Positions 12,515 through 53,896 are shown, counted from the stretch's first letter. The stretch: 64,000 nt of DNA from an uncultured Verrucomicrobiae bacterium (GCA_963769025.1 CAVYKI010000009.1:416001-480000), one strand, 5' to 3'. Notes: a model not told the origin generated them from the letters alone. Numbers and translations: made by a program.

Positions 12515-12613
12515 GGGGGGCGCGACGGCGTCGCAAAGAATGAGAACCGGAGCTCCGCCCAAATGTTGGCCGATTCCTCGCGCAGCCGCGCGCCGCACCG
12601 GCGCGGGTGCCCG

Positions 12614-15261: not shown

Positions 15262-16461
15262 TCAGCGGTCGCCGAAGAGCTGGGTCTCGGTCTGGTCGTC
15301 GCCTTTCCTCATCTCGCGGGGGTCGCGGCTGATGACGAAGCGTTCGAGCATCTCGTCCACGACGATGTCGGGCTTCTCGGATTCGATGATGCCCCTGTCC
15401 CAATTCTGCTGCCACACATAGACCACGCGGCCAAAGCTGTAGCCGAAAAATTTGCTGAGCGCGATGGCGAAGGAATCGCGGAACATGACCGCCTTCCCCT
15501 TCGCGGCGGGATTCTCCGAGACGAGGGGCTCGGTGCCCGGGATCCACTGCTTCGCGATGAGGTTCGTTTCCTTGTGCACCGCGAGCGGCGCGAGTGGCGG
15601 TCGCGGTTCGAGCACCGGCGTGTGCTTTTCCGGCAGGTAGGCCTCCTGGCCCAGCATCCGCGCGAGGTCTCCGCCCGGCTGATCAAAAGCTGTCTCGGCA
15701 AAGGCATCCTCATCCGGCGCGGTGGCCGGGACACCGAGCGAGGCGATCTCGCTCACGACGCGGCGGTACGCGGCGAAAGCGCCGCGCTCGTTCCAGTGCG
15801 TGTCCGTTTTCAGGTAAACCTGCGCGCTCTTCTTCGCATCGAACAGCGTTTCGCGAAGGTCGAGGATCGGCACGTCGCTCTTTTCGCGCATATAGGCGAG
15901 CAGCTGATCGATGCGCCGCGGCGAGCGTGCCCGGGCGATGAGCCAGTCGGGCAGATGCTCGGCGTAGATGCTCTGCTTGTCCGGCGGGATGACGAAGAGA
16001 TAGCGGATGCCACGCTCGCGCAGCCAGTCGCGCCGCCCCGTCAGCAGGAGGCGCCATTCTTCGAGGTCTGCATCGCTGAAGGGGCGCGAGCCGGTGATGT
16101 CGTCCACGGTCCGGCCGTCGGAGTAGAACAGCCAGCCGTCCTTCCCGACGAGCGTGTTCGCGATGCGCGAATCACGAAACAGCGTCCATTTCAGCCGCTG
16201 CTCCCAGCGCACGAGCTGGCGGCGGAATCCAAAATGGTCGGCGAACCAAGCTTCGGTGCCCGCGAAAAATTCACCGGTACCCTTGAGCGTCGGATGGAAC
16301 GTCGGGAATGTGGCGGGCGGGCGGTTTTCGTTCGGCGATGCGGCCCGGTCGAGGTGCAGGAAGCTGTCGGCCGTCGGAAGCCACAGGAACACAAAGAACG
16401 CGGCGATGAGCGCGATGTCCGCGCGGCGCTTCAGGATTTCACGGCTGGGAAAGAGCGTCAT
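15262..16461 (-). CDS. AlgJ/AlgX-like periplasmic O-acetyltransferase (DHHW-type)
   Basis: N-terminal [29 protein letters not shown]. Confidence 0.88.
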
Positions 16462-16465
16462 GGCG

Positions 16466-17922
16466 TCAGAACCGGAAATAGATGAAGGGATTGTAGGTGC
16501 CGCCGGCGAGCCACGCGGAGCAGACCAGCAGCAGTGCGATGACCATGACGCACTCGAAGGTCAGGCCCACGGAAGTCAACGCAGAGCCGGCGCGGTGCGG
16601 CATGCGCTCGGCAGGCCCGCGCGAGTTGCGCCTTCAGCCACGTCCACGCGGGCATCGCAAAAATCGCCCCGGCGACGAGCGCGAAGATCGACTGGTTGCT
16701 GGCGTAGCGATGGAGCGATTGCGTGACTTCGCCCGGCGTCGCGAGGCCAAGCATGTTCGCGAAAAACGCCAGCGCCTGCGGGAACGACGTCGCGCGGAAC
16801 AGCACCCAGCCGGCCATCACCGCGGCGAGCGCGTAGGCGTGGCGGAAAACGCGCGGCGTGCGTTCCATCCATGCACCGAAGCGAGTCCGCTCCAGCACGA
16901 GGAAGAGGCCGTGGTAGAGACCCCACGCGACAAACGTCCAACTCGCCCCGTGCCACAGCCCGCAGAGGAAAAACACGATGACGAGGTTGAAGTAGTTCCG
17001 CGGTCTCCGAGCAGCGGTTGCCGCCGAGCGGGATGTAGAGGTAGTCGCGGAACCACGTCGAAAGCGAGATGTGCCAGCGCCGCCAGAATTCCTTCACCGA
17101 TTGCGAGATGTAGGGGCTGTCGAAATTCTCGATGAACTTGAATCCAAACATCTTCCCGAGCCCGACCGCCATGTCCGAGTAGCCGGAGAAATCGAAGTAG
17201 ATCTGCACCGTGTAGCAAAGCGTGCCGAACCACGCGAGCGCGGGAGTCAGCTCGCCCGTCGGGAGCGCGAAGATCTGATCCGCCGGCAGCGCGACGGCAT
17301 TGGCGATGATCACCTTTTTTGCGAGTCCGCCGACGAAACGCCGGATGCCTTCCGCGAACTTTTCGCGCGTGACCACCCGCTGCACGAGCTGCGGAGCGAT
17401 GGCGCTCCAGCGCAGGATCGGCCCGGCGATGAGCTGGGGAAAAAAGAAGATGTAGAGCGCCGTGTCCGCGGGATTCCGCGCCGCGACGGATTTGCGACGG
17501 TAGATGTCCACGACGTACGACAGCGCGTGGAAGGTGAAGAACGAGATGCCGATCGGCAGCCGGATTTCGCCGATCTGAATTTCCGGGAGATGGAAGGCGG
17601 AAAGCACGGCGTTCGCATTCCCGACGGCAAAGTTGGCGTATTTGAAGAAGGCGAGCAGCCCGACGTTGAGCACGATGGCGACCGTCACTGCGGATTTTCT
17701 CCGCGCCGGATCCTGTTCGCGATCCACGCGCAGGCCGAGGAACCAGTTCACCAGCGTCGAGCCGAGCAGCAGGAAGATGAAGCCGACCTCGCCCCACGCG
17801 TAGAAGAGGAGGCTGACGACGAGGAGCAGTGCATTGCGCGCACGAAGTCCGGGCAGCAGCGCGTAAAGCGTCAGCACGACCGGCAGGAACAGGAATAGGA
17901 AAAGCGTGGAACTAAAGACCAT
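16466..17922 (-). CDS. AlgI/DltB-type MBOAT O-acyltransferase; frameshifts near 17000 and 16600
   Basis: [65 protein letters not shown]-terminal YNPFIYFRF. Confidence 0.92.
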
Positions 17923-27503: not shown

Positions 27504-27626
27504 ATCCGCAGGGGGAACCGCTCAAGGACGCCGGCCCGAACGGTGAACACCGTGGCCCCGCCGCTTTCCAAGAGAAGTTCGTGAATGATCAACTTTCATC
27601 AATCCACCCAACAACGTCATCACCCC

Positions 27627-29078
27627 ATGTCCCCCCGAAAATTCCTCCACCTTACAGCGGTTGCCATCCTTGCCATTCTATCCGAAGCGGGCGCTGCAGA
27701 GACTCCGGCGGCAAAATTCCGCGCGGGTGCCGCGATGAGCAACATCACGCCGAATCTCGACTCGGGGATTATCGGCGGCTTTGTGCCGTTTCCGGCGTCG
27801 CAAGTGCACGACGAGCTGCATGCGCGCTGCCTCGTGCTCGACGATGGCAAGACGATGCTTGCCTTCGTCGTGTGCGATTTGCTCGGCATTCACCGGAGCG
27901 TGAGCATCGAGGCGCGGAAGCAGATTCAGGAGGCGACCGGCATTCCGCCGGAGCGTGTGATGATCTCGGGCACGCACACCCATTCCGCCGCGAGTGCGCT
28001 GGGAGAATTGCGCTACACGTCCGAGCAGCCGCTCGATGAGTACCAGCGCTTCGTCGCGCGCCGGATCGCGGATGGCGTGCGGCGCGCGATTGGCGTCCTG
28101 CGTCCCGCTGAGATTGCATTTGGCACCGCGGAGGCGCCGGAGCACGTGTTCAACCGCCGCTGGTTCATGCGCGAGGGCACGGTGCCGCTGAATCCTTTCG
28201 GCAAAGTGGACAAGGTGAAGATGAACCCTCCCGGCGGCAGTCCGAACCTCACGGAACCGGCCGGCCCGACCGATCCCACGGTTTCCTTCATCGCGCTGCG
28301 CGAGCCCGGCGGAAAGCTGATCTCCATCTTCTCCGCCTACTCGTTGCACTACGTCGGCGGCGTCGGGAACGGGCATATCTCTGCCGATTACTACGGGATG
28401 TATTGCGAGGCGCTGAAAAGGCTGCAGCACGCGGAGGACAACGACCCGCCATTTGTCGCGTTGATGGCGAATGGCACGAGCGGTGACGTGAACAACATCA
28501 ACTTCCGCACGCCGCGCGCGGGCAAGGCGCCCTACGCGCAGATGCGCTACGTCGCCGAGGACGTGGCAAGGAAGGTGAGCGATGCGCTGGCGGGCGTGAC
28601 TTGGAAGGATCACGCGGAACTCGATGCTCGTTACCGCGAATTGCGGCTCTCATGGCGCAAGATCGAGCCCGAACTGCTCGCGTGGGCAAAGGAGAAGCAG
28701 GCAATCGCGACAGGCAGTCCGGCGAAGGGCGACCTGCCCGTCATCTACGCCGGTCGCGTCGAGCGCCTATCGCAGGCGACCGATCCCGCGCTCGTGCCGC
28801 TCCAGGCGTTTCGCGTCGGCGACATCGGCATCGGCACTTCGCCCTGCGAGACGTTTACAGAGACGGGACTCGAGTTTAAGAAGCGCAGCCCCTTCGCGCA
28901 CTCATTCATGGTCGAGCTGAACCACGGCTACATGGGCTACCTGCCCACGCCGCGTCACTTCGAACTCGGCGGCTACGAGACGTGGGCCGGCACGAACTAT
29001 CTCGAACCCGAAGCCTCGGTGAAGATGCTCGACGCGCTGCTGGAGATGACCGCGGAGCTCTCACCGAAGGCCCGATGA
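27627..29078 (+). CDS. Neutral/alkaline ceramidase N-terminal-domain family hydrolase
   Basis: AGAAMSNITP, HDELHARCLVLDDG, THTHSA, FNRRW, YSLHY, GGYE. Confidence 0.85.
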   Translation: MSPRKFLHLTAVAILAILSEAGAAETPAAKFRAGAAMSNITPNLDSGIIGGFVPFPASQVHDELHARCLVLDDGKTMLAFVVCDLLGIHRSVSIEARKQIQEATGIPPERVMISGTHTHSAASALGELRYTSEQPLDEYQRFVARRIADGVRRAIGVLRPAEIAFGTAEAPEHVFNRRWFMREGTVPLNPFGKVDKVKMNPPGGSPNLTEPAGPTDPTVSFIALREPGGKLISIFSAYSLHYVGGVGNGHISADYYGMYCEALKRLQHAEDNDPPFVALMANGTSGDVNNINFRTPRAGKAPYAQMRYVAEDVARKVSDALAGVTWKDHAELDARYRELRLSWRKIEPELLAWAKEKQAIATGSPAKGDLPVIYAGRVERLSQATDPALVPLQAFRVGDIGIGTSPCETFTETGLEFKKRSPFAHSFMVELNHGYMGYLPTPRHFELGGYETWAGTNYLEPEASVKMLDALLEMTAELSPKAR

Positions 29079-29164
29079 TCGCAGGTCCGGGACGCTGAAC
29101 GCATTTCGAACTGTTTTTCGCTGGAATTGCCGCGCGGGGGCGCAATGTTCGCCGCCCTTTGAAA

Positions 29165-30481
29165 ATGGACGACAGCCAACTCCCGACGCGCGAACTCTAC
29201 GACCGGCATGTGATTCCGACCTACGGCCGCTTTGACCTGCGCCTGGCGCGCGGGCGCGGCTGCGAGGTGTGGGATGAGGACGGAAAGCGGTATCTGGATT
29301 TCGGCGCGGGCATCGCGGTGACGAGCATCGGGCATGCGCACCCGCGGGTCGTGCGCGTGTTGCAGGAGCAGGTGGCGACGCTCGTGCATACGTCGAACCT
29401 CTATTTTACACGCCCGCAGGCGATCCTCGCGGCGCGGCTGGTGCGCCTCGTGGGTGCCGGCGGGAAGGTGTTCTTTTGCAACTCCGGCGCGGAGGCGAAC
29501 GAGGCGCTCTACAAGCTGGCGCGGAAATTCGGCAACGACGGCGCGCAGCCGCCGCCGAAGCACACGGTCGGCGAATTGGTGCAGAGGGAACAGGCGCGCA
29601 TCGGGATCGTGACGATGCTCGGGAGCTTTCATGGCCGGACGCTCGCGGGCATTTCCGCGACCGGGCAGGAGAAGGTGAAGAAGGGATTCGAGCCGATGGT
29701 CGAGGGATTCCGGCACGTGCCGTTCAACGACATCGCCGTGCTGCAGGAGACGGTGGATGCGCCGGGGACCGTCGCGGTGCTCATCGAGCCGGTGCAGGGC
29801 GAGAGCGGCGTGCATCCGGCGGACGCGGAGTTCTTGCGCGCGGCGCGGCGGCTGTGCGACGAACGGGACCTGCTGCTCATGTTTGACGAAGTGCAGTGCG
29901 GCCTCGGCCGGACGGGCGGATGGTGCGGCTGGAAGAGCATCGCGCCGGACGTGATGCCGGACGCCGTGAGCTGGGCCAAGGGCATCGCGGGCGGCTTCCC
30001 GCTCGGCGCGATCTGGGTGAGCGAGCGCGAGGTGAAGCTGAAGGACGGAACGTCGAAGAAGCTGTGCGACGTGCTCGGGCCTGGCACCCATGGGACGACC
30101 TTTGGCGGGACGCCGCTCGTGTGCGCGGGTGCGAACGAAGTGCTGGCGGTGATCGAGGAGGAAGGGATGCTGCAGAATGCATCGGTGATCGGCGCTCACG
30201 CACTTGAGGTGCTGCGCGCGATTCCTTCGCCGCTGATCAAGGAAGTGCGAGGCTTGGGCCTGATGATCGGCATCGAGCTTGCCACGGATTTTGAGGCGCG
30301 GGCAAAAGTGCCTGCGGGAAAAGCGCCGAGCCTCTGGCTGGTCGAGCGTCTGCACGAGGCGGGCCTGCTCACGATCCCGAGCGGCACGCACGCGCTCCGC
30401 TGGCTGCCGGCGCTGAACGTAACGCGTGCGGAGATCGACGAGGCAGCGGCGATTCTCGCGCGCGTGCTGGGCGCACTGTGA
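29165..30481 (+). CDS. argD: Acetylornithine aminotransferase (class III PLP)
   Basis: YLDFGAGIAV, HTSNLY, FCNSGAEANE, SFHGRT, EPVQGESG, FDEVQCG, AKGIAGG, HGTTFGG. Confidence 0.9.
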   Translation: MDDSQLPTRELYDRHVIPTYGRFDLRLARGRGCEVWDEDGKRYLDFGAGIAVTSIGHAHPRVVRVLQEQVATLVHTSNLYFTRPQAILAARLVRLVGAGGKVFFCNSGAEANEALYKLARKFGNDGAQPPPKHTVGELVQREQARIGIVTMLGSFHGRTLAGISATGQEKVKKGFEPMVEGFRHVPFNDIAVLQETVDAPGTVAVLIEPVQGESGVHPADAEFLRAARRLCDERDLLLMFDEVQCGLGRTGGWCGWKSIAPDVMPDAVSWAKGIAGGFPLGAIWVSEREVKLKDGTSKKLCDVLGPGTHGTTFGGTPLVCAGANEVLAVIEEEGMLQNASVIGAHALEVLRAIPSPLIKEVRGLGLMIGIELATDFEARAKVPAGKAPSLWLVERLHEAGLLTIPSGTHALRWLPALNVTRAEIDEAAAILARVLGAL

Positions 30482-30527
30482 GCGCGGAGGTTGCGGGGCG
30501 CGGTGTTCCGGCCTATTCGTCGTGCCG

Positions 30528-31502
30528 ATGAAAACCTCTCTCCCGTTGTCCGTGATTTTGGTGAGCGCGATGAGCGTTGCGTTCGCCGCCGATCCTGCGC
30601 CGCCCGAGGGCATGGTGCTCATCAAGGGGGGCACATTTTCCATGGGCAGCAATGACGGCGCGAGCGATGAGAAGCCGGTGCACGAGGTGAAGCTGAAGCC
30701 GTTTTTCATGGACCGCACCGAAGTGACGAATGCGCAGTTCGAGGAGTTCGTGAAGGCGACGAAATACGTGACGACGGCCGAGCGCGTGCTGACCTCGAAG
30801 GACATCCCGGGGCTGCTGCCGGAATTTGAGGGCAAGACGATGGGGCTGTGCTTCCGTGCGCCGAAGGGCGAGGTGGATTTGCGGAACACCGGGGCGTGGT
30901 GGCTGCCGGTCTTTGGCGCGAACTGGCGGCATCCCGACGGCCCGGAGACGGACCTGAAGGGTCGCGAGAATCATCCCGTCGTGCATGTGTCGTGGGACGA
31001 CGCGATGGCGTATTGCAAATGGGCGGGCAAGCGGCTGCCGACGGAGGCCGAGTGGGAATACGCGTCGCGAGGCGGACTCGATGGCTCGCGGTATGTCTGG
31101 GGCAATGAATTCAATCCCGGCGGGAAATGGATGGCGAACACGTGGCAGGGGAAGTTTCCCGAAGCAAACAGCGGCGAGGATGGGTACAAAAACACTGCGC
31201 CCGTGGGCACCTATCAGCCGAATGGATTCGGACTTTTCGACATGGCGGGCAACGTGTGGGAGTGGTGCTCGGACTGGTACCTGCCGGAGTATTACGCGCG
31301 CTCGCCGAAGGAAAATCCGCAGGGGCCGGACACGAGTTTCGATCCCGATGAGCCGGGCATCATGAAGCGGGTGACCCGCGGCGGTTCGTGGATGTGCGCT
31401 GAAAATTATTGCCGCGGCTACCGTCCGGCGATGCGCATGAAGGTCGCGCCGGACACTGAATTTCAGAACACGGGCTTCCGTTGCGTGAAGGACTTGCCGT
31501 GA
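30528..31502 (+). CDS. Formylglycine-generating enzyme (SUMF1-type) with intact catalytic motif and signal peptide
   Basis: EVTNAQF, HPVVHVSWDDA, RLPTEAEWEY, DMAGNVWEW, RGGSWMCAENYCRGYR, GFRC. Confidence 0.92.
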   Translation: MKTSLPLSVILVSAMSVAFAADPAPPEGMVLIKGGTFSMGSNDGASDEKPVHEVKLKPFFMDRTEVTNAQFEEFVKATKYVTTAERVLTSKDIPGLLPEFEGKTMGLCFRAPKGEVDLRNTGAWWLPVFGANWRHPDGPETDLKGRENHPVVHVSWDDAMAYCKWAGKRLPTEAEWEYASRGGLDGSRYVWGNEFNPGGKWMANTWQGKFPEANSGEDGYKNTAPVGTYQPNGFGLFDMAGNVWEWCSDWYLPEYYARSPKENPQGPDTSFDPDEPGIMKRVTRGGSWMCAENYCRGYRPAMRMKVAPDTEFQNTGFRCVKDLP

Positions 31503-32566
31503 GCGAACCGGCGGACACTGCACGCGCGGCCCGACGAACGGGATTCATTTTCGCCGGTATCGTCGTCGCAGCGGTGACGATGGTGACGGTGTGGCTGGTG
31601 CCGGAGGGGATGCGCATCGCCCGGAACCGCGACACGCGGCTGGCGGAGGCACGTGCGGGCAGCGACATGGTGCGCGTGGCGGGCGGGGCATTCACGATGG
31701 GCGCGAATGACGGCGCGCAGGACGAGCAGCCGCTGCACGATGTGAGGGTGAGCGCGTTTTGGATGGATCGCACGGAGGTCACAAACGAGGAGTTCGAGCG
31801 CTTCGCGAAGGCGACAGGGCACATCACGACCGCGGAATTGCCGCCTCAGGGCGGGCCTGAGGGCAGCTTGGCGATGGAGCAACGGCAGGCGGGCTCGTGG
31901 TGTTTCCAGCCCGGCCCTGATGCGCAGGCGTCAGTTCGAAGGACTTGGCTCGCTTTCGTCCCCGGAGCGAGCTGGCGCAGGCCACGCGGTCCGGGTTCGG
32001 ACATCGCGGGGCGGGGGAGATTCCCGGTCGTGCACGTCAGTCACGACGACGCGGTCGCCTACTGCAAATGGGCGCGCAAGCGCCTGCCGACCGAGGCGGA
32101 GTGGGAGTGCGCCTCGCGCGGCGCGAGGATTCTCACGCGCTATCCGTGGGGCAATGATGTCCGGGGTGAGAATGGGACGTGGATGGCGAACACCTGGCAG
32201 GGAGCATTTCCGGCGAAGGATGAGGCGTTGGACGGTTTCGCGGGGCTTGCGCCTGTTGCGAGATTTCCCGCGAATGGATCGGGACTGCACGACCTCGCGG
32301 GCAACGTCGCCGAGTGGTGTGCGGACTGGTACCAGCACGACTATTACGCGCAGCTCCGGCCGGATCCGAATCGCGCGGCGCATCGCAACCCGCGCGGACC
32401 GGAGGTGAGCACCGATCCGGCCGAGCCCGGCGTGTGGAAGCGCGTCGTGCGCGGCGGATCGTGGCTGAGCGACGCCGTCGCGTGCCGCGTCTCGGTGCGC
32501 GGGCGCGAGGCCCCCGGGTTCAGCGCGGAATGGATCGGTTTCCGATGCGTGAAGGACGCCCAATGA
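31499..32566 (+). CDS. FGE-sulfatase-domain paralogue, membrane-anchored, lacking the CxxxxC pair
   Basis: N-terminal TM; RLPTEAEWE, GNVAEW, RGGSWLSDAVACR, GFRC; GTGA overlap with the upstream gene. Confidence 0.9.
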   Translation: MSEPADTARAARRTGFIFAGIVVAAVTMVTVWLVPEGMRIARNRDTRLAEARAGSDMVRVAGGAFTMGANDGAQDEQPLHDVRVSAFWMDRTEVTNEEFERFAKATGHITTAELPPQGGPEGSLAMEQRQAGSWCFQPGPDAQASVRRTWLAFVPGASWRRPRGPGSDIAGRGRFPVVHVSHDDAVAYCKWARKRLPTEAEWECASRGARILTRYPWGNDVRGENGTWMANTWQGAFPAKDEALDGFAGLAPVARFPANGSGLHDLAGNVAEWCADWYQHDYYAQLRPDPNRAAHRNPRGPEVSTDPAEPGVWKRVVRGGSWLSDAVACRVSVRGREAPGFSAEWIGFRCVKDAQ

Positions 32567-34296
32567 GCATGAGCGAACGCGCGAAGCTCCGGTGGCAGCG
32601 ATTGGCGCGCGGCCTCGTTCTGCTGGCACTTCTCGCGCTCACTTTCGTCGCGCGCTGCCACAACCGCGAAAGCGTGTTCCATCACGGCGGCGTGTACTTT
32701 GTGGACGGCGACTGCTATTCGCGGATGACGCGGGCGAAGATGGTGTCGGAGGGGCAGTGGTTCATCCACCATCACGATTTCGAGAACTGGCCGCAGGGAG
32801 TCACGCCGCACACGACGGCACCGATGGACTGGCTGATTGTCGGCCTCAAGTCCGTCGTGGACGTGGTTTTCAAAATTGGCGACGCGCGTATTGCACCGGA
32901 GTACCGCACCCAATCACTTGATGTCGCAGGGGCGCTCATCTCGCCGCTGCTCGGCGTGCTGACTGCGGCGTGGCTTTGGTGGTGGGCCGGGAGGATGCGC
33001 GTGCCGTTCCGGGGGGCGATGGTGCTGCTATTCGCGCTGAGTCCCATCGCCGTCCACGGGACGGTGCTTGGACGGCCGGATCACCAGTCGTTGCTCATGT
33101 TCCTGCTGGCGGTCGCGCTTGGCTGCGAACTGCGGCTGATGCGTTCGGAGGATGACTCGAGGAAGCTCCGGCGCGCGTGGAGCATCGCCACGGTTTTCGC
33201 GTGGGGCATCGCGCTGTGGGTCTCGCTTTACGAGCCGCTGATGCTCCTGGTGCCGGTGAGCCTGACCCATCTCGTGATCGAGCGAAAAAAGCTCCTCGCG
33301 TCCCGGCGGGCGAAGAAGCTGATCGCGCTGGCGGGGTTCCTCGTGCTGATCTTTTTCCTCGAAGGCTGGCGCACGGAGGTGCCCGGTCCCGAACTGCGCG
33401 AGAGCTTCGCGCGCTGGTCCGCGGGCATCGGTGAACTCCGGCATCTGAATCCCACCGATGCCCTGCTCTGGGAATGGCTGGGTCTGCTCGTCGTGCTCGC
33501 GCCGGTGATGCTCTGTCTTGAAGCGCGGGAGGACCGGCGCGGGGTCGCGCTCCTCGCTGGCGTCGTGTTGCTGTTTGGCCTCACGGTCTGGCAACTGCGC
33601 TGGGGGTATTTTTTGCTGCTCGCCTATGTGATGTGCCTGCCGTGGATGCTCCGCGCTTTTCGCAGCGTCCCGATCGCGTGGGCTGCATTCGCCGTGGGGC
33701 TCGTGCCCATGGGCATGTCGTGGTCCCGCACTTTGCATCCCAAGGAAAAGATCGCACACGATCAGGCCTGGCGGCATCTGTCCCAGTCGCGGCTTCGCAC
33801 GATCGCCGCGAAGATGAGGGAGGGGCCGCGTGTTGGATTTCTCGCGCCGTGGTGGATGTCACCGCAACTCGCCTATTGGTCGGGTCAGCCGGGGGTCGCG
33901 GGGTCGAGCCACCAGAGCCTGCCGGGGACACTCGATGCAGCGCGCTTTTACCTTTCCACCGATGATGCGAAAGGCGCCGACTTGCTTCGCAAGCGACAGG
34001 TGGGATGGGTCATCGCGGATAACGCTTCGTACGATATTGCAGAGCGCGAACGATTGCTGGCCGTCACCAATTCCGAAGTCGTACTGGGTGTGCGCGCCCC
34101 GGAAGAGCCGCTGGGATACATTCTTGCCGAGCGTCCGAAGCAGGCGCCGAAGTATCTCCAGGAAGTCGGTCCCGGCGAACTCGGACTCGTGCTCGATTTT
34201 GCGCCGAAGACTGGACGCACCATCGAAAACCAAGGCATGAGAATCTATGCGACGCAGATGCATCATCTGTATCGTGTGCTACCGGACCTTCCATGA
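32563..34296 (+). CDS. STT3/AglB/PglB-like GT-C membrane glycosyltransferase with a variant WWD motif
   Basis: Polytopic; DGDCYSRM, GRPDHQ, GIGEL, QLRWGYF, PWWMSPQLAYW, DAARFYLSTD...LLRKRQVGWVI occur in AglB-like order. Confidence 0.75.
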   Translation: MSMSERAKLRWQRLARGLVLLALLALTFVARCHNRESVFHHGGVYFVDGDCYSRMTRAKMVSEGQWFIHHHDFENWPQGVTPHTTAPMDWLIVGLKSVVDVVFKIGDARIAPEYRTQSLDVAGALISPLLGVLTAAWLWWWAGRMRVPFRGAMVLLFALSPIAVHGTVLGRPDHQSLLMFLLAVALGCELRLMRSEDDSRKLRRAWSIATVFAWGIALWVSLYEPLMLLVPVSLTHLVIERKKLLASRRAKKLIALAGFLVLIFFLEGWRTEVPGPELRESFARWSAGIGELRHLNPTDALLWEWLGLLVVLAPVMLCLEAREDRRGVALLAGVVLLFGLTVWQLRWGYFLLLAYVMCLPWMLRAFRSVPIAWAAFAVGLVPMGMSWSRTLHPKEKIAHDQAWRHLSQSRLRTIAAKMREGPRVGFLAPWWMSPQLAYWSGQPGVAGSSHQSLPGTLDAARFYLSTDDAKGADLLRKRQVGWVIADNASYDIAERERLLAVTNSEVVLGVRAPEEPLGYILAERPKQAPKYLQEVGPGELGLVLDFAPKTGRTIENQGMRIYATQMHHLYRVLPDLP

Positions 34297-35687
34297 ACTG
34301 CGATTTTCTCATCATCGGCGGAGGCAGCGCGGGTTACGCCGCGGCGCGCACCGCCGTTTCACTCGGGCTGAAGACGTGCGTCGTGGACGGCGCGGATGAG
34401 CTTGGCGGGCTCTGCATCCTGCGCGGCTGCATGCCGAGCAAGACGCTGCTCGAATCCGCCAGCCGATACTCGACGTTGCGGCGCGCAGAGGAGTTTGGCC
34501 TGCGCGCGCGTGCGCTCGAAGTGCGCGGCCCGGAGATCCTCGAGCGCAAACGGAGGCTGATCGCCGGATTTGCTGAGTATCGGCAGGAGCAGCTCACCGC
34601 CGGAAAATTCGAACTGATCCGCGGGCATGCGCGCTTCCTCGATGCGAATACGGTCGAGGTGAAGCTGCGCGAAGGCGGCATGCAGCGCATCGAGGCCAGA
34701 AGCTTCCTGCTCGCGACGGGGTCTGTCGTCAGCGAACCGCCGCTCAAGGCCCTGGATGAAATCGACTGCTGGACCACCGACGAGGCGCTCGAAAGTGCCG
34801 AAGTGCCCGGGTCCATCATCGTGCTCGGTGGCGGGGCCACGGCGGTGGAATTTGCCACTTATTACGCCGGGCTGGATCGCGACGTGACGCTCATTCAGCG
34901 CAGCAAACAGCTCCTGACCGGAACCGACGCGGATCTCGCGCAGGCGCTCGCGCACGGCCTGCGGAATCGCGGGGTCCAGGTGTTCACCGAGACGAAGCTC
35001 GTGGGCGCTGAGCGGGCGGGGGATATGAAACGCGTCTCCTTCGAGCACGATGGCAACGAGCTCGCCGTGGACGCCGCGCAAGTGTTGCAAGCGCTGGGTC
35101 GCTCGCCGAACGTGCGCGGGCTGGGCCTCGATGCCGCGGGATTGAGCCTTGCAAAAGGACGCCCTGAGATGCGGCCCACGCAGCAGACCAGCCAGCCGCT
35201 CATCTTCGCGGCGGGTGATGTGTCGGGACCGTTCGAGATCGTTCACATCGCAATCCAGCAGGGTGAAGTCGCCGCCCGGAATGCCGCCCGCATTCTGGCC
35301 GGTGGAGCGGAACCGCTGGAGGAGACCGATTACCGGCTGAAGCTGTCCGTCATTTTCTCCGATCCGGAAGTGGCAACGGTCGGCCGCAGCGAGAACGAGC
35401 TGCGCGAGGAAGGCGTCGCGTTCCGCACGGCGAGTTATCCGTTCAACGACCATGGCAAGTCGATGTGCATGGGCGAGACGGACGGTTTTGTGAAGCTGAT
35501 GGTGGCGGAGGAGGGCGGGGAGATTCTCGGTGGCGCGTGCGTCGGCCCACATGCGGCGGAACTCATCCATGAAATCGTCGTCGCGATGCGCTTCCGGGCA
35601 ACGGCGGCGCAGCTCGCGGAGACGCCGCATTATCACCCGACGCTCAGCGAAATCTGGCAGTATCCCGCGGAGGAACTTGCGGGATAA
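34293..35687 (+). CDS. Class I pyridine nucleotide-disulfide oxidoreductase (dihydrolipoamide dehydrogenase-like)
   Basis: IGGGSAG, GGLCILRGCMPSK, AAGD, HPTLSE. Confidence 0.9.
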   Translation: MNCDFLIIGGGSAGYAAARTAVSLGLKTCVVDGADELGGLCILRGCMPSKTLLESASRYSTLRRAEEFGLRARALEVRGPEILERKRRLIAGFAEYRQEQLTAGKFELIRGHARFLDANTVEVKLREGGMQRIEARSFLLATGSVVSEPPLKALDEIDCWTTDEALESAEVPGSIIVLGGGATAVEFATYYAGLDRDVTLIQRSKQLLTGTDADLAQALAHGLRNRGVQVFTETKLVGAERAGDMKRVSFEHDGNELAVDAAQVLQALGRSPNVRGLGLDAAGLSLAKGRPEMRPTQQTSQPLIFAAGDVSGPFEIVHIAIQQGEVAARNAARILAGGAEPLEETDYRLKLSVIFSDPEVATVGRSENELREEGVAFRTASYPFNDHGKSMCMGETDGFVKLMVAEEGGEILGGACVGPHAAELIHEIVVAMRFRATAAQLAETPHYHPTLSEIWQYPAEELAG

Positions 35688-35729
35688 AAGGGCTGGCATA
35701 CCGTTCTGGCGCGAAGTTCGGCGGGGTGG

Positions 35730-35757
35730 TTGACACGCCCCCGCCGCGTCCCATACT
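35730..35757 (+). promoter_or_regulatory. Candidate sigma70 promoter for the bactofilin genes
   Basis: TTGACA (35730-35735), 16-bp spacer, CATACT (35752-35757), about 105 bp before the ATG. Confidence 0.55.
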
Positions 35758-35861
35758 GCCCCTCCGGTTTCGGGCGAAAAACTGAAAATTCCGTCTGAGA
35801 ATCGGGCCGCGCCGCGACGCCGGAATGCGGGAACATCCAACCAACAACTCCAAACAAAATC

Positions 35862-36257
35862 ATGGCAGACATCACGACCAACCAGAAGAACATCCTGAGC
35901 AGCGACGTCGAAATCAAAGGCTCAATCAAGTTTCAGAACGAACTCACCGTGGACGGCAAGGTGGAGGGGGAAATCACTTCCTCGGGCGTGCTCACTGTCG
36001 GTGAGAACTCGGAGATCAAGGGCGAGATCAAGACGAAGTCCGTGACGGTTTACGGCAAGGTGCATGGGAACATCACGGTCGAAGAACGCTGCGAGCTGAA
36101 GGCCCGCGCGACGCTCTACGGTGACTTGAAAGCGACGCGGCTCGTTATCGAGGAAGGCGCGACCTTTGTCGGCAAATCCGAGGTGACTCCGAACAAGGTC
36201 GCGATGAAGCAGCCGGAGATCGTGCGGAATCCCGAGACGCGCGCAGGCGGCCGCTAA
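35862..36257 (+). CDS. Bactofilin (polymer-forming cytoskeletal protein)
   Basis: Beta-helix repeats ILSSDVEIKGSI...VDGKVEGEI...LVIEEGATFVGKS. Confidence 0.93.
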   Translation: MADITTNQKNILSSDVEIKGSIKFQNELTVDGKVEGEITSSGVLTVGENSEIKGEIKTKSVTVYGKVHGNITVEERCELKARATLYGDLKATRLVIEEGATFVGKSEVTPNKVAMKQPEIVRNPETRAGGR

Positions 36258-36307
36258 CGGAAGCGCGTTCATCCCCGAGGTGGTTTTGCGCTGGTCGCGC
36301 GGGCGGT

Positions 36308-37177
36308 TTGCCCGTCCGCGCGGCCGGTGTTACTTTCGGGGACCAGAACGCTGGGAAACCCTCCGTGGCGAAAAACGCACGCAAGAACAGCGACAAGATG
36401 TCCGCCGTGTGCCCGCATTGCGGGTTCACGCAGGAGGAGTCTGTCGTGGCAAAGAGCACTTTCTGCCGGAAGTGCCAGGAGCACTATTCGCTGGAGAGGG
36501 CCCTCGCGGGGGAGCGCAGCATCGTCAAGGCGCCGTCGCTTTTTTCAAAGCTGACGCGGATGGTGGTCGGCGACCGGGAGCGGGAAGTTTGCTGCTTCAG
36601 TTGCGGCCACAAGCAGGTGCTGAGCACGGCCGCCCACAGCACGATGTGTCCGGGGTGCGCGGCCTACATGGATCTGCGCGATTTCAAGATCGAGAGCCCG
36701 TTTGGCCGCAGCGTGCAGACGGCCGGCGAGGTGCATGTCGCGACGCGCGGCGATGTGACGAGCACGCGGCTGATGTGCGGCTCGGCTTTCATCGAGGGCA
36801 GCCTGCGCGGTTGCATCGTCTGTACGGGCAGGGCGCGGGTGAAGATCAAGGGCAGGCTCACCGGCATGCTCGATTCGCAGCACATCCTTGTGGAGAAGGG
36901 GGCCGACATGGAGTTCGCGCGGCTGGTGCGGACGAAACTTTTCGAAGTGAGCGGCAAGACGCGCGCGCGGGTGCTGGCGGACAAGGTCGTCATCAACAAA
37001 GGCGGCTGGCTGGAGGGGACCGTCTATGCGCGGGCCATCTCCGTGGACAAGGGCGGCGTATTCAGCGGCGATCTGAATATCGGCCAGGAGGAATTCGACG
37101 TGCAGGAGGAGCCGATGGAAACGGACCGGCACATTGCGCGGTTCGACGACGACAACGTCGCGTTCGGTCCCGCATAG
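36308..37177 (+). CDS. Bactofilin-domain protein with two N-terminal zinc ribbons (start may be 36398)
   Basis: CPHC..CRKC and CFSC..CPGC, then repeats ending ISVDKGGVFSGDLNIG. Confidence 0.82.
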   Translation: MPVRAAGVTFGDQNAGKPSVAKNARKNSDKMSAVCPHCGFTQEESVVAKSTFCRKCQEHYSLERALAGERSIVKAPSLFSKLTRMVVGDREREVCCFSCGHKQVLSTAAHSTMCPGCAAYMDLRDFKIESPFGRSVQTAGEVHVATRGDVTSTRLMCGSAFIEGSLRGCIVCTGRARVKIKGRLTGMLDSQHILVEKGADMEFARLVRTKLFEVSGKTRARVLADKVVINKGGWLEGTVYARAISVDKGGVFSGDLNIGQEEFDVQEEPMETDRHIARFDDDNVAFGPA

Positions 37178-37189
37178 GGAACGCGGCGC

Positions 37190-38179
37190 CTACTTCGGCG
37201 GCGCAGGCACCGGCGGGACCGGTTTTGTGGCCGGCGGCGTGGAAGAGGGCGTCGCTGGCTCGGGGAGTGCCGGCTTTGGAGTCGCTGGCGCAGGCGTGCC
37301 GGACGTCGGCACGGGAGGCGCAGGCGCGGGAGGCGTCGCCGTTTCGGGCTTCTGAGTCGGCGGGACCGGAGTTGGCGGCGTCGTCGGCATCGGCAGCGGA
37401 GTCGTGACTCCGGCGGGAAGTCCGGGCGCGGGGGGCGTCGGAGCTGGTGTGATGCCGAGCGGGATTGCCGGCGGAGCGGGTGTCGGAGGCGGTGTGGGGC
37501 GCGGCGAACCGCCGGTCTTCCTTCCGGCGGCATTTTTGATTTCATCCAGCAAAATCCGCGCGTCTTCCGCGAAGGGATTGCCGGGGTATTTCTGTTCCAC
37601 GGACTCGAGCGCTTTTGCTGCTTCCTCGCCCCTGCCGAGCGCAATGAGCACCCGGGCCTGCCCCAGATATGCGAGCGGTGCAAAGGCACTGCTCCCGTGC
37701 GAAGCGGCAAACTGCTGGTAGGCTCCGAGGGCCTCGTCGAGTTTCCCGGCCGTTTCCAAAGAGGATGCGAGTGCATGCGAAGCGGGGACACGCAGCGGAT
37801 GCACCGGATATTTCTCCATGAATTCCTTCAGCGCCTGCGCCGCATCCGCGGACTTCCCTTCCTTGCGCAATTCTTCCGCCAGGCGGATGTACGCCGTGCC
37901 TGCCGCAGGCGTCCCCGACCAGTCTCCCGTCACCTTGCGATACTCGACTGCAGTCTTCGCAGCGGCGAGCGCCTCCTCCGAGCCGGCCTTCTTCCGGTAT
38001 TCCATGAACAGCCACACGCCCCACACGATCACCGCCAGCACCGCGGCGATGATAAGCCGGATGATGAGGCGCTGATGCAGGATCCAAAACGCCAGCAGGT
38101 CAAACTCCTGCGGCGGCTGCGGTGCCGGAGTGGAGAGAGCGGGCTTGGGCTCGTTGGAATCCGAGGCGGGTAGGGACAT
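37190..38179 (-). CDS. YfgM-like TPR membrane protein with a Pro/Thr-rich tail
   Basis: Single TM, TPR-like helices (FMEKYP, YLGQAR..LG), about 100 aa P/T/A-rich C-terminus. Confidence 0.8.
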   Translation of the reverse strand: MSLPASDSNEPKPALSTPAPQPPQEFDLLAFWILHQRLIIRLIIAAVLAVIVWGVWLFMEYRKKAGSEEALAAAKTAVEYRKVTGDWSGTPAAGTAYIRLAEELRKEGKSADAAQALKEFMEKYPVHPLRVPASHALASSLETAGKLDEALGAYQQFAASHGSSAFAPLAYLGQARVLIALGRGEEAAKALESVEQKYPGNPFAEDARILLDEIKNAAGRKTGGSPRPTPPPTPAPPAIPLGITPAPTPPAPGLPAGVTTPLPMPTTPPTPVPPTQKPETATPPAPAPPVPTSGTPAPATPKPALPEPATPSSTPPATKPVPPVPAPPK

Positions 38180-50732: not shown

Positions 50733-53705
50733 TCAGTTCACGTAAGCCGCCTCGTTCGAGAACAGCAGCACCTGCACGTACGTCTCCCAAGGCGACAGGA
50801 CTTTCCGCGTGACCATGGAACCTTCGTTCTGGATCGCGCTGAATTTGCTGTCTCCGCGCCGCATGCCGTTGCCGGGCCTGCCTTTTCCGGCGGATGCCGT
50901 CTTCGCGGCGATTTGCGCGGCCACTTCGGCCTGCAGCCTCGCCTCGGTCGTCAGGAATTTGTTGGCCATCTGGATTTCCTGCATCGTCGGATAACGCTGG
51001 AAGATGAGCCGGTAGATCGCGGAGATGCGGGAGAGTTCGTTGCTTTGGCGGGTGATTTCCGGGCGGGCGAGTACCTTGCGCGTCACATCCACCGCCATCG
51101 CGCTGTTCATCAGGAAAAGCGCCTGCTGGGGGACGATGCTCGTGCTGCGCTTCGAGTTCGGCATGTCGGGATCGCTGAAGTCAAAGTGCGCCATGAGCTC
51201 GGGGAGATTGCCGCGGTCGATGTAGCCATAGACGCTGCGGCGGTAGCTGTACGGTTCGTCAGTGAGATTGACCGGCTTTCCGCCCACGGTGCGGTCGAGG
51301 TCGCCGCTGTAAACAAGCAGGCTGTCGCGTGTCGATTCGAAATCCAGCCGGCGGACATTCGCGCGCCAGAGGAGACGGTTGCCGGGGTCGAGCGTCTCAT
51401 ATTCGGTCCGCGTGTGGCTGCTCTCCTGAAACACGCGGGACATCACGATGAGCTTGTGCAGCTTCTTCATGCTCCAGCCGGTGTCCATGAACCAGTTCGC
51501 CAGGAAGTCGAACAGCTCGGGATGCGTCGGCTTTTCCGACATCGTGCCAAGGTCGTCGGGCGTCCGCACGAACCCCTCGCCGAAGTGGTGCATCCAGACG
51601 CGGTTCACGATTACGCGCGCCGTCAGCGGATTGTCCTTCGATGCGATGCACGTCGCGAGTTCATATCGGCCGCTTCCCTTTGAAAACTCAATGGACTTCT
51701 GCCCGGGGCTCAGGATCTCGAGGAAGCCGCGCGGGACGATGGCACCGCGCGTCTGCTGCTGGCCGCGGATGAACACCGGCGAATTTACCGGACGGTCCTT
51801 GTCCTTCACGACCATCGCCCGCGCCGGGGCGCCGGGGTGCGTGATCTCGAGAAGGTTGATCGCAGCGAAGTCGAGCCGGCCGCGGCCCGCGATTCGCCGG
51901 GGGAAATTTTCCGTCGCTGCCTCGAGCCAGTTCTGCGTGAGCAGCACGGCGGGCGCCATCTCGAACGGCCCACGCAGCAGATCGATCATCGCCTCGTCGT
52001 ATCCTGGGACGGCGACCGACGCCGCATTCCGCATCGCCGGGATGAACCCCTTGCTCTTGGCCGCGAGGCTTTCGAAAAGCTGCGCGTAGGCCTCCACTGC
52101 GGCGTCAAAGGTCTTCGGCTGCGCCGCAGTCAGCGCGTTTTGCACGAGCGGATTCGTCCCGCTGCCGGCTCGCTTCGGCATCATCGCCGACATGCCGCCC
52201 TTCTCCGCCATCGGCCGGTTTGCGAACTTCATTCCGCCGCCGTTTCGGAATGACGAAAGCGGTCCCCACACCGACGGATTCTGCTGCATCCCGCGTCCGA
52301 TGAACTGCACCAGCTCTGCGTCGAGCTTGTATTGCTCGACCATCGCCTTCTGCGCCTCGTTGCCCCGGCCCTTGCCGCCGCCAGCCGTAGCCGCGCGGAT
52401 GTAGGCTCCCGGCACGCGGTAAAATTCCGCCAGCTCCTTGCCCACGAGGTCATAGTACTGGCCGCCGATGCCCTTGATCAGCGCCGTGTATTTCTTCTCA
52501 AAATCCTGCTGCTGCGCAGGGGTGGCCTTCATGCCGATGAGCGGCTTTTCCGACGGCTCGGTGATGCTCGCGAACACGCCGTGCAGCGCGTAGTAATCCT
52601 TCGTCGGGATCGGGTCGAACATGTGGTCGTGGCAACGCGCACACACGACGGTCATCGCAAGGAAGCCCTTGCTCACCACGTCGATGCGATCGTTGATGAT
52701 GTCGTTCGCATTTCCAAAGCGCTCGCCGACCGTGAGGAACCCAAGCGCCGCCAGCCGCGGGTCATTCGGTGAGATGCCGGGAATGAGGTCCGCCGCAAGC
52801 TGTTCGACGATGAAGTCCGTGTACGGCTTGTCGTCGTTGAACGCCTTCACGACGTAGTCGCGGTAAGTCCACGCATCCGCGTAACGGTAGTCCGAGTTCC
52901 GGTTCTGGTTCCGCGTCCCGCCGACCGTGTCCGCATAGCGTGCGGTGTCCAGCCAATGGCGCGCCCAGCGCTCGCCGTACGCGGGCGAGGCGAGCAGGCG
53001 ATCCACCACCTTCTCGTACGCATTCGGCGCCGTGTCGTTCATGAATGCCTCCGTCTCCGCGTAGGTCGGCGGCAGGCCGGTCAGGTCATACGTCACGCGC
53101 CTCAGCAAGGTCTCACGCGTTGCGTCCGGCGATGGCAGCATTCCGTTCGCTTCCAGCTTTTGCAGGATGAAGTTGTCGATCGGCGTGCGGCACCACTGCT
53201 GGTTCTTGTTGTTGGGAAAAGCGTGTCGGTCGGGAGGCTGGTAGGCCCAGTGCTTCCGCGCGCTGTCCGTCAGTCCGCTCAGCTTGGTTTTCTTCGCCTC
53301 GGCTTCCGTTCGGGGATCGGGCGCGCCCATTTTGATCCACGTGGCGACATCCGCGATCTGCTGCGCGCTGAGCTTGCCACCGCTGCTTGAGGGCGGCATC
53401 TGGAGATCGGTGTCCGTGTAAGTCAGCGCCGTGTACAACAACGATTTTTCCGGGTCACCCGGGACGATTGCCGGACCTCCGTCGCCGCCCTTTTGCCAGC
53501 CCACCTTCGAGTCCAGCGTCAGGTTGCCTTTCGATTTTCCAGACTGGAGGGAATGGCACTTGTAACACGTTTCCGAGAGGAGCGGACGAATTTTCCCCTC
53601 GAAAAAGTCGGTCTGTTCCTTCGTCAGTTCCGCGGTCGCCGCCGCACAGAGTGGCGCGGGGAGAATGGCGAGAATGCCTGCAATAATGCGCGGGGTGGTG
53701 CTCAT
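50733..53705 (-). CDS. Planctomycete cytochrome c / DUF1549 / DUF1553 (PSD1) protein
   Basis: FFEGKIRP..CYKCH, HWAYQP, LLRRVTYDLTGLPP, YGERWARHWLD, CARCHDH, NPLTARVIVNRVW, RRSVY. Confidence 0.92.
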   Translation of the reverse strand: MSTTPRIIAGILAILPAPLCAAATAELTKEQTDFFEGKIRPLLSETCYKCHSLQSGKSKGNLTLDSKVGWQKGGDGGPAIVPGDPEKSLLYTALTYTDTDLQMPPSSSGGKLSAQQIADVATWIKMGAPDPRTEAEAKKTKLSGLTDSARKHWAYQPPDRHAFPNNKNQQWCRTPIDNFILQKLEANGMLPSPDATRETLLRRVTYDLTGLPPTYAETEAFMNDTAPNAYEKVVDRLLASPAYGERWARHWLDTARYADTVGGTRNQNRNSDYRYADAWTYRDYVVKAFNDDKPYTDFIVEQLAADLIPGISPNDPRLAALGFLTVGERFGNANDIINDRIDVVSKGFLAMTVVCARCHDHMFDPIPTKDYYALHGVFASITEPSEKPLIGMKATPAQQQDFEKKYTALIKGIGGQYYDLVGKELAEFYRVPGAYIRAATAGGGKGRGNEAQKAMVEQYKLDAELVQFIGRGMQQNPSVWGPLSSFRNGGGMKFANRPMAEKGGMSAMMPKRAGSGTNPLVQNALTAAQPKTFDAAVEAYAQLFESLAAKSKGFIPAMRNAASVAVPGYDEAMIDLLRGPFEMAPAVLLTQNWLEAATENFPRRIAGRGRLDFAAINLLEITHPGAPARAMVVKDKDRPVNSPVFIRGQQQTRGAIVPRGFLEILSPGQKSIEFSKGSGRYELATCIASKDNPLTARVIVNRVWMHHFGEGFVRTPDDLGTMSEKPTHPELFDFLANWFMDTGWSMKKLHKLIVMSRVFQESSHTRTEYETLDPGNRLLWRANVRRLDFESTRDSLLVYSGDLDRTVGGKPVNLTDEPYSYRRSVYGYIDRGNLPELMAHFDFSDPDMPNSKRSTSIVPQQALFLMNSAMAVDVTRKVLARPEITRQSNELSRISAIYRLIFQRYPTMQEIQMANKFLTTEARLQAEVAAQIAAKTASAGKGRPGNGMRRGDSKFSAIQNEGSMVTRKVLSPWETYVQVLLFSNEAAYVN

Positions 53706-53896
53706 GGATTGGGGTAGGGGAGGACAGCCGCCGGGAGGTCGGCAGACTGCTTCCCTTTCATGTAGCACAAAGGCCGCCTGCACGAAGCAGTTTTCCGTCC
53801 TTTCCGAGGGTCGCGTTCGCCAGAGATTCACGCCTCAAAAACCGTGCGATGCTCAACGCAGTTGAATCCTCCCGCGCCGCCGCGTAATGACACGCC

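Follow-up and report, generated by a model that had tools for sequence, protein, structure and literature searches.

A 64,000-nucleotide stretch of DNA from an uncultured Verrucomicrobiae bacterium (GCA_963769025.1 CAVYKI010000009.1:416001-480000), hereafter the window, carries at 30528-35687 of its plus strand four genes that encode, in order, a formylglycine-generating enzyme (FGE1), an FGE paralogue without the first catalytic cysteine (FGE2), a GT-C glycosyltransferase resembling the oligosaccharyltransferase (OST) proteins STT3 and AglB (GT-C in the text) and a flavoprotein disulfide reductase (PNDR). Direct reading of the sequence confirms that the four are chained by three consecutive 4-bp stop/start overlaps, at 31499, 32563 and 34293, as a preliminary description of the locus had reported. 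The identities it proposed for all four products are likewise borne out by Pfam, NCBIfam, PDB matches and predicted fold, including that of GT-C, for which Pfam gave no family even at E ≤ 10. Its guess of an origin in the Planctomycetes-Verrucomicrobia-Chlamydiae group was also correct, as the relatives of the locus belong to Chthoniobacterales and other Verrucomicrobiota.

The reading frame of FGE1 runs from the ATG at 30528 to the TGA at 31500-31502, and FGE2 opens within it at GTG 31499 (overlap GTGA). The next two junctions are both of the ATGA type, with the ATG of GT-C at 32563 against TGA 32564-32566 and that of PNDR at 34293 against TGA 34294-34296; the stop codon of PNDR lies at 35685-35687. 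Alternative in-frame starts are present for the second gene (TTG 31481) and for the third (GTG 32314 and ATG 32569). Homologues support the starts given here, which are those of the preliminary description, and the relatives of GT-C open at the same Met (MSMSE...) or later. Among the 11 nearest related loci (L001-L011) the -4 junction is kept in 11/11 between FGE1 and FGE2, 10/11 between FGE2 and GT-C and 8/11 between GT-C and PNDR, the other junctions in this set being ambiguous since they were extrapolated from alignments that begin at residue 2. The window has a GC content of ~65% and 4-bp overlaps are frequent in it, three more appearing in its list of open reading frames (ORFs) at 13315, 23269 and 39307, so that three in succession are the mark of an operon and not an anomaly. 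The plus-strand run in the ORF list extends from ~17906 to ~37400, and co-directionality alone therefore carries little weight.

The upstream neighbour, argD (29159-30481), ends 46 nt before FGE1. The caution already voiced that this linkage may be incidental is justified, as the gene upstream of FGE1 varies among relatives, with argD there in only some, and a promoter-like element precedes FGE1 (see the table). The GTTGCGG and T.C..GC.TAT blocks of this element are invariant in 8/8 aligned loci, including three (L001, L007 and L008) in which the upstream gene is not argD. In its strict form the pattern occurs exactly once in each of 8 of the 80 loci compared, always 12 nt before FGE1, and it was found before GT-C in 0/58 of the loci that have no FGE. 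A generic sigma-70 scan did not call the element, and a looser form of the pattern is not rare by chance (2 found, 0.88 expected). These observations suggest that the four genes may have their own promoter, with argD as an incidental neighbour.

Features of the locus, with coordinates counted from the first nucleotide of the window
Feature	Position	Strand	Basis or remark
FGE1, secreted Cu-type formylglycine-generating enzyme, 324 aa	30528..31502	+	PF03781, Cys pair
FGE2, membrane-anchored FGE paralogue ("pseudo-FGE"), 355 aa	31499..32566	+	PF03781, first Cys absent
GTC, STT3/AglB-like GT-C glycosyltransferase, 577 aa	32563..34296	+	predicted fold, AglB-S homology
PNDR, cytoplasmic class-I flavoprotein disulfide reductase, lipoamide-dehydrogenase-like, 464 aa	34293..35687	+	Pyr_redox domains
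Promoter-like element, GTTGCGG ... TTC..GC.TAT (TTGCGG-17 nt-TATTCG at 30491-30519)	30490..30519	+	ends 9 nt before FGE1 ATG
Sigma-70-like match TTGACA-16-CATACT	35730..35757	+	PNDR-bactofilin gap
Bactofilin 1, 131 aa	35862..36257	+	PF04519, E = 3.9e-28
Bactofilin 2, 289 aa	36308..37177	+	PF04519, E = 1.9e-14; GC at third codon positions 0.86

The GT-C family and its acceptor motif

In the curated family models GT-C has only a weak match, to the NCBIfam family archaeo_STT3 (E = 0.0025), which covers N-terminal residues 18-260 only. An AlphaFold2 model built on an 80-sequence alignment (pLDDT 93.9, pTM 0.93) consists of about 13 helices in residues 5-419 followed by a mixed alpha/beta C-terminal globular domain. 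When this model was compared with the PDB using Foldseek, the 18 best matches were all STT3, AglB or PglB (E = 5e-12 to 7e-8, TM-score 0.55-0.64), with yeast and human STT3 at E = 5e-12 to 5e-10 (TM-score 0.59-0.64), A. fulgidus AglB at 7e-10 and C. lari PglB at 6e-8; DPY19, ArnT and AftD also matched significantly and ranked below the OST subunits. The profile of the family, searched against PDB sequences, retrieved only the C-terminal domains of A. fulgidus AglB-S, aligned over the whole domain (3vgp, E = 1.7e-8; 3vu0, E = 4e-7), and in a language-model atlas GT-C adjoins clusters bearing STT3 and AglB_core-like domains.

Conservation across 80 diverse family members is summarised here. Position 48 is Asp in 72 sequences and Glu in the other 8, and Asp-50 (79/80), Cys-51 (76/80) and Arg-57 (80/80) follow closely. 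Further along, Glu-74, Asn-75 and Pro-77 are each kept in 80/80, Asp-89 in 79/80, Asp-173 in 78/80 and His-174 in 79/80, and four more residues are invariant (80/80 each), namely Trp-219 and Glu-224, the latter within S221-x-x-E224, and the adjacent Arg-346 and Trp-347. An active OST requires a D-x-D, D-H, S-x-x-E and Arg pattern, and in these enzymes the Glu of S-x-x-E and the acidic residues of D-x-D activate the amide acceptor. In the C-terminal domain Trp-430 (75/80), Trp-431 (80/80), Ser-433 (63/80) and Pro-434 (77/80) form a motif that reads WW-x-S-P, and D458-x-x-R461, which aligns on the D-A-A-K of AglB-S, retains Asp in 58/80 and Arg in 63/80; this site may correspond to the DK/MI-type motif of OSTs.

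The variable position of WW-x-S-P, residue 432, aligns with the Asp of WWDYG, the residue that in known OSTs reads the +2 Ser/Thr of the N-x-S/T sequon. Among the 80 members it is Leu in 35, Phe in 10, Ile in 7, Met in 6, Gln in 6, Val in 5 and Glu in 3, and Asp is found in 1/80, so that the WWDYG motif with its binding of the +2 Ser/Thr is not a property of this family. From the pattern of retained and replaced residues we infer that GT-C would be an active transferase whose acceptor rule, given the loss of the sequon-reading Asp, must differ from that of the known OSTs. Its donor would most likely be a polyprenyl-phosphate-linked sugar or glycan, which it would transfer to an acceptor at the periplasmic face. 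Reading of the GT-C translation by eye found no CxPxR-type FGE substrate motif in it.

Set against STT3, AglB and PglB, of which A. fulgidus AglB-S is the nearest, GT-C is alike in fold, C-terminal domain and size, and the D-x-D, D-H, S-x-x-E, R-W and WW features conserved in its family may correspond to those of the OSTs. It differs in having WW-(L/F/I/M/V/Q)-S-P in place of WWDYG and Arg in place of the Lys of D-x-x-K, and also in its surroundings: a Pfam scan of window ORFs (sets of 9, 8 and 35, some ORFs being in more than one set) detected neither a flippase nor a glycosyltransferase of glycan assembly, and the conserved neighbours are instead a flavoprotein reductase and bactofilins.

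The family is large, with 2455 matches in a word-indexed search and, in another search, 1294 clusters at 50% identity (E ≤ 1e-3). Its named sources are again Chthoniobacterales and other Verrucomicrobiota; they include Chthoniobacter flavus Ellin428, which has GT-C, PNDR and a bactofilin with no FGE beside them and offers a cultured handle on the family. Pfam STT3 (PF02516) matches 0/80 members, AglB_core-like models 9/80 and PMT_2 4/80. One homologue, of 47% identity, comes from a 1.6-kb contig binned as Granulicella (Acidobacteriota; L038, CAIZFH010000072.1); it clusters with Verrucomicrobiota sequences, and the bin is probably an error.

Most of what is known of STT3-type enzymes in bacteria concerns PglB of the Campylobacter-like and Desulfovibrio-like kinds, and such enzymes are in demand for glyco-engineering. 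A large family with no Pfam or NCBIfam assignment, an intact-looking core and a rewritten acceptor motif would widen the range of OST-like chemistry, and this Verrucomicrobiota-wide, undescribed STT3-like family is the most interesting part of the locus. The full-text literature outside subscription-only work, as represented by the extracts available, holds no description of it, of an independently arisen inactive FGE paralogue beside an active one, or of a bacterial FGE/OST cluster. Within the same extracts, work that joins formylglycine with OSTs concerns engineering or the human endoplasmic reticulum (ER) and no natural bacterial cluster, and work on OSTs and WWDYG concerns engineering and eukaryotic topics. 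In the accessible part of PMC4973528 the bacterial homologues of STT3 are only a few, placed within Euryarchaeota, and the GT-C family does not appear; that of PMC7203096 does not mention OST genes.

The tandem FGE pair

FGE1 matches the FGE-sulfatase family (PF03781) with 300 bits over profile positions 3-255 of 255, and its PDB matches include FGEs from S. coelicolor (6muj, E = 1.3e-95) and T. curvata (6s07, E = 1.4e-83) and human SUMF1 (1y1e, E = 2.8e-82). It resembles these aerobic copper-dependent enzymes from end to end, and its C-x4-C pair (SWMCAENYCRGYR) is in register with the Cys pair of the S. coelicolor enzyme. It differs from them in bearing a cleavable-type signal sequence, in which AFA/AD comes after a hydrophobic stretch (residues 3-21), and in that some of its orthologues are without the second Cys. 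On this sequence evidence the FGE1 of the window most likely functions in the periplasm and generates formylglycine with the help of copper.

Its orthologues are less uniform. Both catalytic Cys residues are kept in 12/15 FGE1 sequences, the second having become Leu in L001 and L007 and Asn in L020. The gene is absent from L017, and in L011 an in-frame remnant is left (L011:6506-6889) in which residues 1-87 are joined to 280-324 and 88-279 are missing, with FGE2, GT-C and PNDR kept intact and overlapping. FGE1 is in this way lost, truncated or short of a catalytic Cys in 5/17 related loci that retain FGE2; it is therefore dispensable within the operon, and formylglycine formation by an operon-encoded FGE1 is not essential to the gene arrangement. 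The two Cys-to-Leu sequences (L001:6008-6985 and L007:6002-6979) differ from each other with a ratio of non-synonymous to synonymous substitution rates (dN/dS) of 0.04, at a dS of 0.158 against 0.55-0.63 in the three neighbouring genes. The low dS could reflect recent exchange or conversion of that gene alone, or unusual constraint.

FGE2 belongs to the same fold family (PF03781, 238 bits, profile positions 3-255 of 255), and the two proteins share 51% identity. It differs from the aerobic FGEs in having an N-terminal RR followed by a hydrophobic segment at residues 17-35, a predicted membrane anchor, and in its active site: in comparison with its nearest solved relative, T. curvata FGE (6s07, E = 6e-60), Ser stands in place of the first copper-binding Cys, and the second is followed by a three-residue deletion. 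Across the set the first Cys is present in 0/18 sequences and the second in 11/18, and FGE2, lacking the C-x4-C pair of a copper-dependent FGE, was not filed as one. As judged from these residues it cannot bind Cu(I) through two thiolates, yet selection keeps it (dN/dS 0.10-0.22). It was found in every locus of the FGE-bearing clade with enough upstream sequence, is never absent where FGE1 is present, and remains joined to the start of GT-C both in L017, which has no FGE1, and in L011, where FGE1 is gutted.

The preliminary description had likened this protein to SUMF2, the inactive paralogue of human FGE. The likeness stands in part, as both are catalytically disabled paralogues beside an active FGE in an extracytoplasmic compartment. 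Orthology does not: FGE2 matches FGEs at E = 6e-60 to 1e-55 and SUMF2 (1y4j) at only 5.8e-42. Since FGE1 and true FGEs are its closer kin, the inactive copy has an independent origin, in a local duplication of FGE1. FGE2 also differs from SUMF2 in being membrane-anchored and in retaining one of the two Cys residues in 11 of its 18 sequences. An inactive, selected paralogue beside an active FGE nevertheless parallels SUMF1/SUMF2 and would offer a simple bacterial system for the role of dead paralogues.

FGE-sulfatase domains without the catalytic Cys pair are also used as binding scaffolds in Tsi3, an immunity protein of the type VI secretion system, and in PorK/GldK, which are also among the matches of FGE1 and FGE2. 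We rejected a role of FGE2 as a type VI immunity protein or as a PorK-like protein of the type IX system, given its E = 6e-60 to true FGEs against about 1e-24 to those proteins, and genes of neither system were seen among the window ORFs scanned. By its residues and its predicted anchor, FGE2 most likely plays a non-catalytic part on the outer side of the inner membrane, as a tether, holdase or regulator.

These properties bear on an analogy that we consider unlikely, in which the STT3-like enzyme would have recruited the FGE paralogues, and FGE2 above all, as accessory subunits for the capture of substrate. They would keep unfolded Cys-containing stretches of exported proteins at the membrane, much as the oxidoreductase subunits Ost3/Ost6 do for the eukaryotic OST. 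The anchor of FGE2, its Cys pattern and the selection on it fit such a role, as does its persistence at the start of GT-C in L017 and L011, and even the FGE1 copies with Cys replaced by Leu in L001 and L007 still evolve at dN/dS 0.04. That FGE-like proteins without the catalytic Cys can serve as non-enzymatic binders has a precedent in the immunity protein Tsi3, as far as the accessible text of bioRxiv 10.1101/2021.05.21.445229 goes. Against this, 50/67 GT-C loci have no adjacent FGE-like gene, and the subunit would thus be unneeded for basic activity; and the active site of FGE1 in the window is complete. A complex prediction for GT-C with FGE2 gave ipSAE 0.00 in both runs and, made without controls, is evidence neither for nor against binding. 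More doubtful still is a narrower form of the idea, in which the FGE-derived anchored pseudo-enzyme, with or without its secreted sister, would be an accessory subunit that captures unfolded Cys-motif segments, for instance of sulfatases, for glycosylation and/or oxidation before folding. If true, this would be an independently evolved bacterial counterpart of the FGE/pFGE/OST neighbourhood of the ER and of Ost3/6-type substrate-holding subunits, and the WW-hydrophobic-S-P STT3 family would make up a novel class of protein glycosylases in bacteria, one whose sequon is not N-x-S/T.

The reductase and the history of the array

PNDR contains the Pfam domains Pyr_redox_2, Pyr_redox and Pyr_redox_dim, and its nearest relatives are dihydrolipoamide dehydrogenases (1ebd, E = 5e-78, full length). 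It scores 365.3 bits against NCBIfam lipoamide_DH, below the cut-off of 408.8, and lies under every equivalog cut-off. Like dihydrolipoyl dehydrogenase, the E3 of 2-oxoacid dehydrogenase complexes, PNDR has FAD/NAD(P) and dimerisation domains, a CxxxxC disulfide and a C-terminal H-x-H-P-T-x-S-E with its His-Glu dyad; the two motifs, CILRGC and HYHPTLSE, are present in 53/53 and 52/53 orthologues. It differs from E3, besides the score, in that no E1 or E2 genes were found among the scanned ORFs of the window and in being conserved beside the GT-C gene. A role as polyprenol or dolichol reductase was considered and set aside, because the CxxxxC/His-Glu signature of disulfide reductases belongs to a flavoprotein class other than those enzymes. 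No signal peptide, transmembrane segment or hydrophobic segment was found in PNDR, which is therefore cytoplasmic, as had been cautioned from the outset.

Gene neighbourhoods were compared in the best 80 of 237 relative loci, with neighbours identified by local tblastn using the window proteins and with denominators that count the loci having enough flank. PNDR lies directly downstream of GT-C in 48/66 loci and anywhere downstream in 52/66. A bactofilin gene follows GT-C in 42/61 loci (at least 2400 bp of downstream sequence) and, in 7 loci, follows it directly with no PNDR between. The FGE genes are far less regular companions: FGE2 is directly upstream of GT-C in 17/67 loci, both FGE1 and FGE2 are upstream in 13/61, and the loci without FGE have unrelated genes there, including a divergent gyrB-gyrA, dnaB and ksgA-nudix. 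The four-gene order is thus conserved with its tight coupling in one clade, and most relatives have GT-C and PNDR with no adjacent FGE.

In a tree of GT-C sequences the FGE-bearing loci and the window form one clade, inside which a nested subclade (L021-L032) has neither FGE nor bactofilin, and a basal clade is without PNDR and retains the bactofilin. The simplest history would be that GT-C and the bactofilin are old neighbours, that PNDR was inserted early, and that the FGE pair came last, in one lineage, and was lost once. One member of the nested subclade carries the start of an FGE1-like gene (L024:17318-17614, 69% identity) ~6 kb downstream of PNDR, at the end of the locus; FGE genes can therefore move away from GT-C.

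Within the array, the neighbourhood of GT-C and bactofilin seems to have the greatest age, and it hints at a role in the envelope or in cell shape. A serious but less probable alternative builds on this: GT-C would modify a lipid, polysaccharide or cell-wall acceptor in an envelope or cell-shape role tied to the bactofilins, and the FGE pair would hitch-hike on its transcription. Besides the antiquity of the bactofilin as a neighbour, this alternative can call on the replacement of the sequon-reading Asp by hydrophobic residues, on the Pfam counts given above for STT3 and PMT_2, and on the significant fold matches to DPY19, ArnT and AftD, which are GT-C enzymes other than OSTs. It has to contend with the fact that the 18 best fold matches are all protein N-OSTs and that the alignment with the peptide-binding domain of AglB-S takes in the entire C-terminal domain, in which the WW is shared and D-x-x-R stands for D-x-x-K. 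The Glu of S-x-x-E and Asp-48/Asp-50, moreover, are invariant or nearly so, as in the general pattern for amide activation.

The preliminary description had proposed an ER-like maturation module that combines formylglycine formation, glycosylation and reducing power. Spelled out, FGE1, under the modulation of FGE2, would provide newly exported sulfatases with formylglycine, the STT3-like enzyme would add a glycan, and the reductase would be the source of reducing power. In its favour, an FGE, an inactive paralogue and an STT3-fold enzyme are encoded together with overlapping codons, the arrangement and overlaps are conserved in the FGE-bearing clade, where purifying selection acts on each of the four genes (dN/dS 0.04-0.22 over eight pairwise comparisons), and FGE1, FGE2 and the C-terminal domain of GT-C are all predicted to face the periplasm. 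FGE and OST enzymes also both act on unfolded linear motifs. Of this proposal the coupling in one clade survives; the integrated function we regard as unlikely, to the same degree as the co-opted subunits discussed above. The GT-C/PNDR pair is older and in most relatives has no adjacent FGE, usually with bactofilins after it. PNDR, which is cytoplasmic and was a neighbour of GT-C before the FGE pair arrived, is therefore unlikely to be a dedicated supplier of reductant to FGE, and the window ORFs scanned include none for a membrane electron shuttle; PNDR belongs with GT-C and not with FGE. FGE1 is dispensable (absent in L017, deleted in L011, its Cys replaced in L001, L007 and L020), the pseudo-FGE is a local duplicate of FGE1 and no SUMF2 orthologue, and the WWD Asp by which N-x-S/T is read is missing from GT-C. 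The scanned ORFs contained neither a sulfatase gene nor genes for glycan assembly.

On balance the evidence tips towards a composite operon in a soil-type verrucomicrobium akin to Chthoniobacterales, in which a tandem FGE pair was added upstream of an old array in one clade. The array would be lineage-wide and comprise the STT3/AglB-fold GT-C, the cytoplasmic lipoamide-dehydrogenase-like flavoprotein and two bactofilins, and the FGE pair would have been placed before it together with its own promoter-like element. PNDR would act in the cytoplasm as a partner of GT-C rather than of FGE. The analysis shows the identity of the genes, the fold, the state of the motifs, hints of topology, the synteny and the selection. 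From these we infer the enzymatic activities and the co-transcription, and likewise any contact or common substrate of the FGE pair and GT-C; as matters stand, their connection would be one of co-expression in one compartment and not an obligate machine.

Several points weigh against the composite operon. The comparison covers 80 of the 237 loci found in a scan of one genome per species, many of them from fragmentary metagenome-assembled genomes, and the tree is a neighbour-joining tree of BLOSUM62 distances for 75 sequences with no support values. The residues Asp-48, Asp-50, Asp-173, His-174, Glu-224 and Arg-346 of GT-C would correspond to OST catalytic residues by their motif pattern and by what is known of these enzymes. 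Within the FGE-bearing clade, gene order and coupling persist to about 48% GT-C identity and to saturating dS; such persistence exceeds usual neutral drift and could mean a real functional link. The constancy of FGE2, which stays with GT-C in L017 and L011, hints in the same direction that FGE2 may serve GT-C. FGE2 is the more stable partner of GT-C than FGE1, and this is the best argument for some functional tie.

Downstream region and other genes of the window

The gap between PNDR and the first bactofilin gene is the sole sizeable intergenic gap of the array. The sigma-70-like match within it is the only one in 28900-37600, where 1.0 is expected by chance, and as a promoter it is only suggestive. 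A terminator-like hairpin lies at 37509-37530 and is likewise weak evidence. An ORF of 375 aa at 36280-37407 (plus strand) overlaps bactofilin 2 in another frame; it belongs to no family but matches related loci at 35-68% in tblastn. Conserved DNA of high GC content has probably given rise to it as a shadow ORF, and the real gene is probably 36308-37177, which carries the bactofilin domain and has the higher GC at third codon positions.

Elsewhere in the window, two paralogues lie at 11129-12598 (minus strand, E = 1e-16) and 27585-29078 (plus strand, E = 1e-13); both carry a neutral/alkaline ceramidase N-terminal domain, an uncommon find in a bacterium. At 15262-17922 (minus strand) an MBOAT acyltransferase adjoins an AlgX-like SGNH protein, and together they look like a polysaccharide O-acetylation pair. 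An ISL3-family transposase (296-1270, plus strand) is found near the start of the window, and two PSCyt/PSD1 (DUF1549/DUF1553) proteins of the Planctomycetes/Verrucomicrobia type are encoded on the minus strand at 5288-7651 and 50733-53831.

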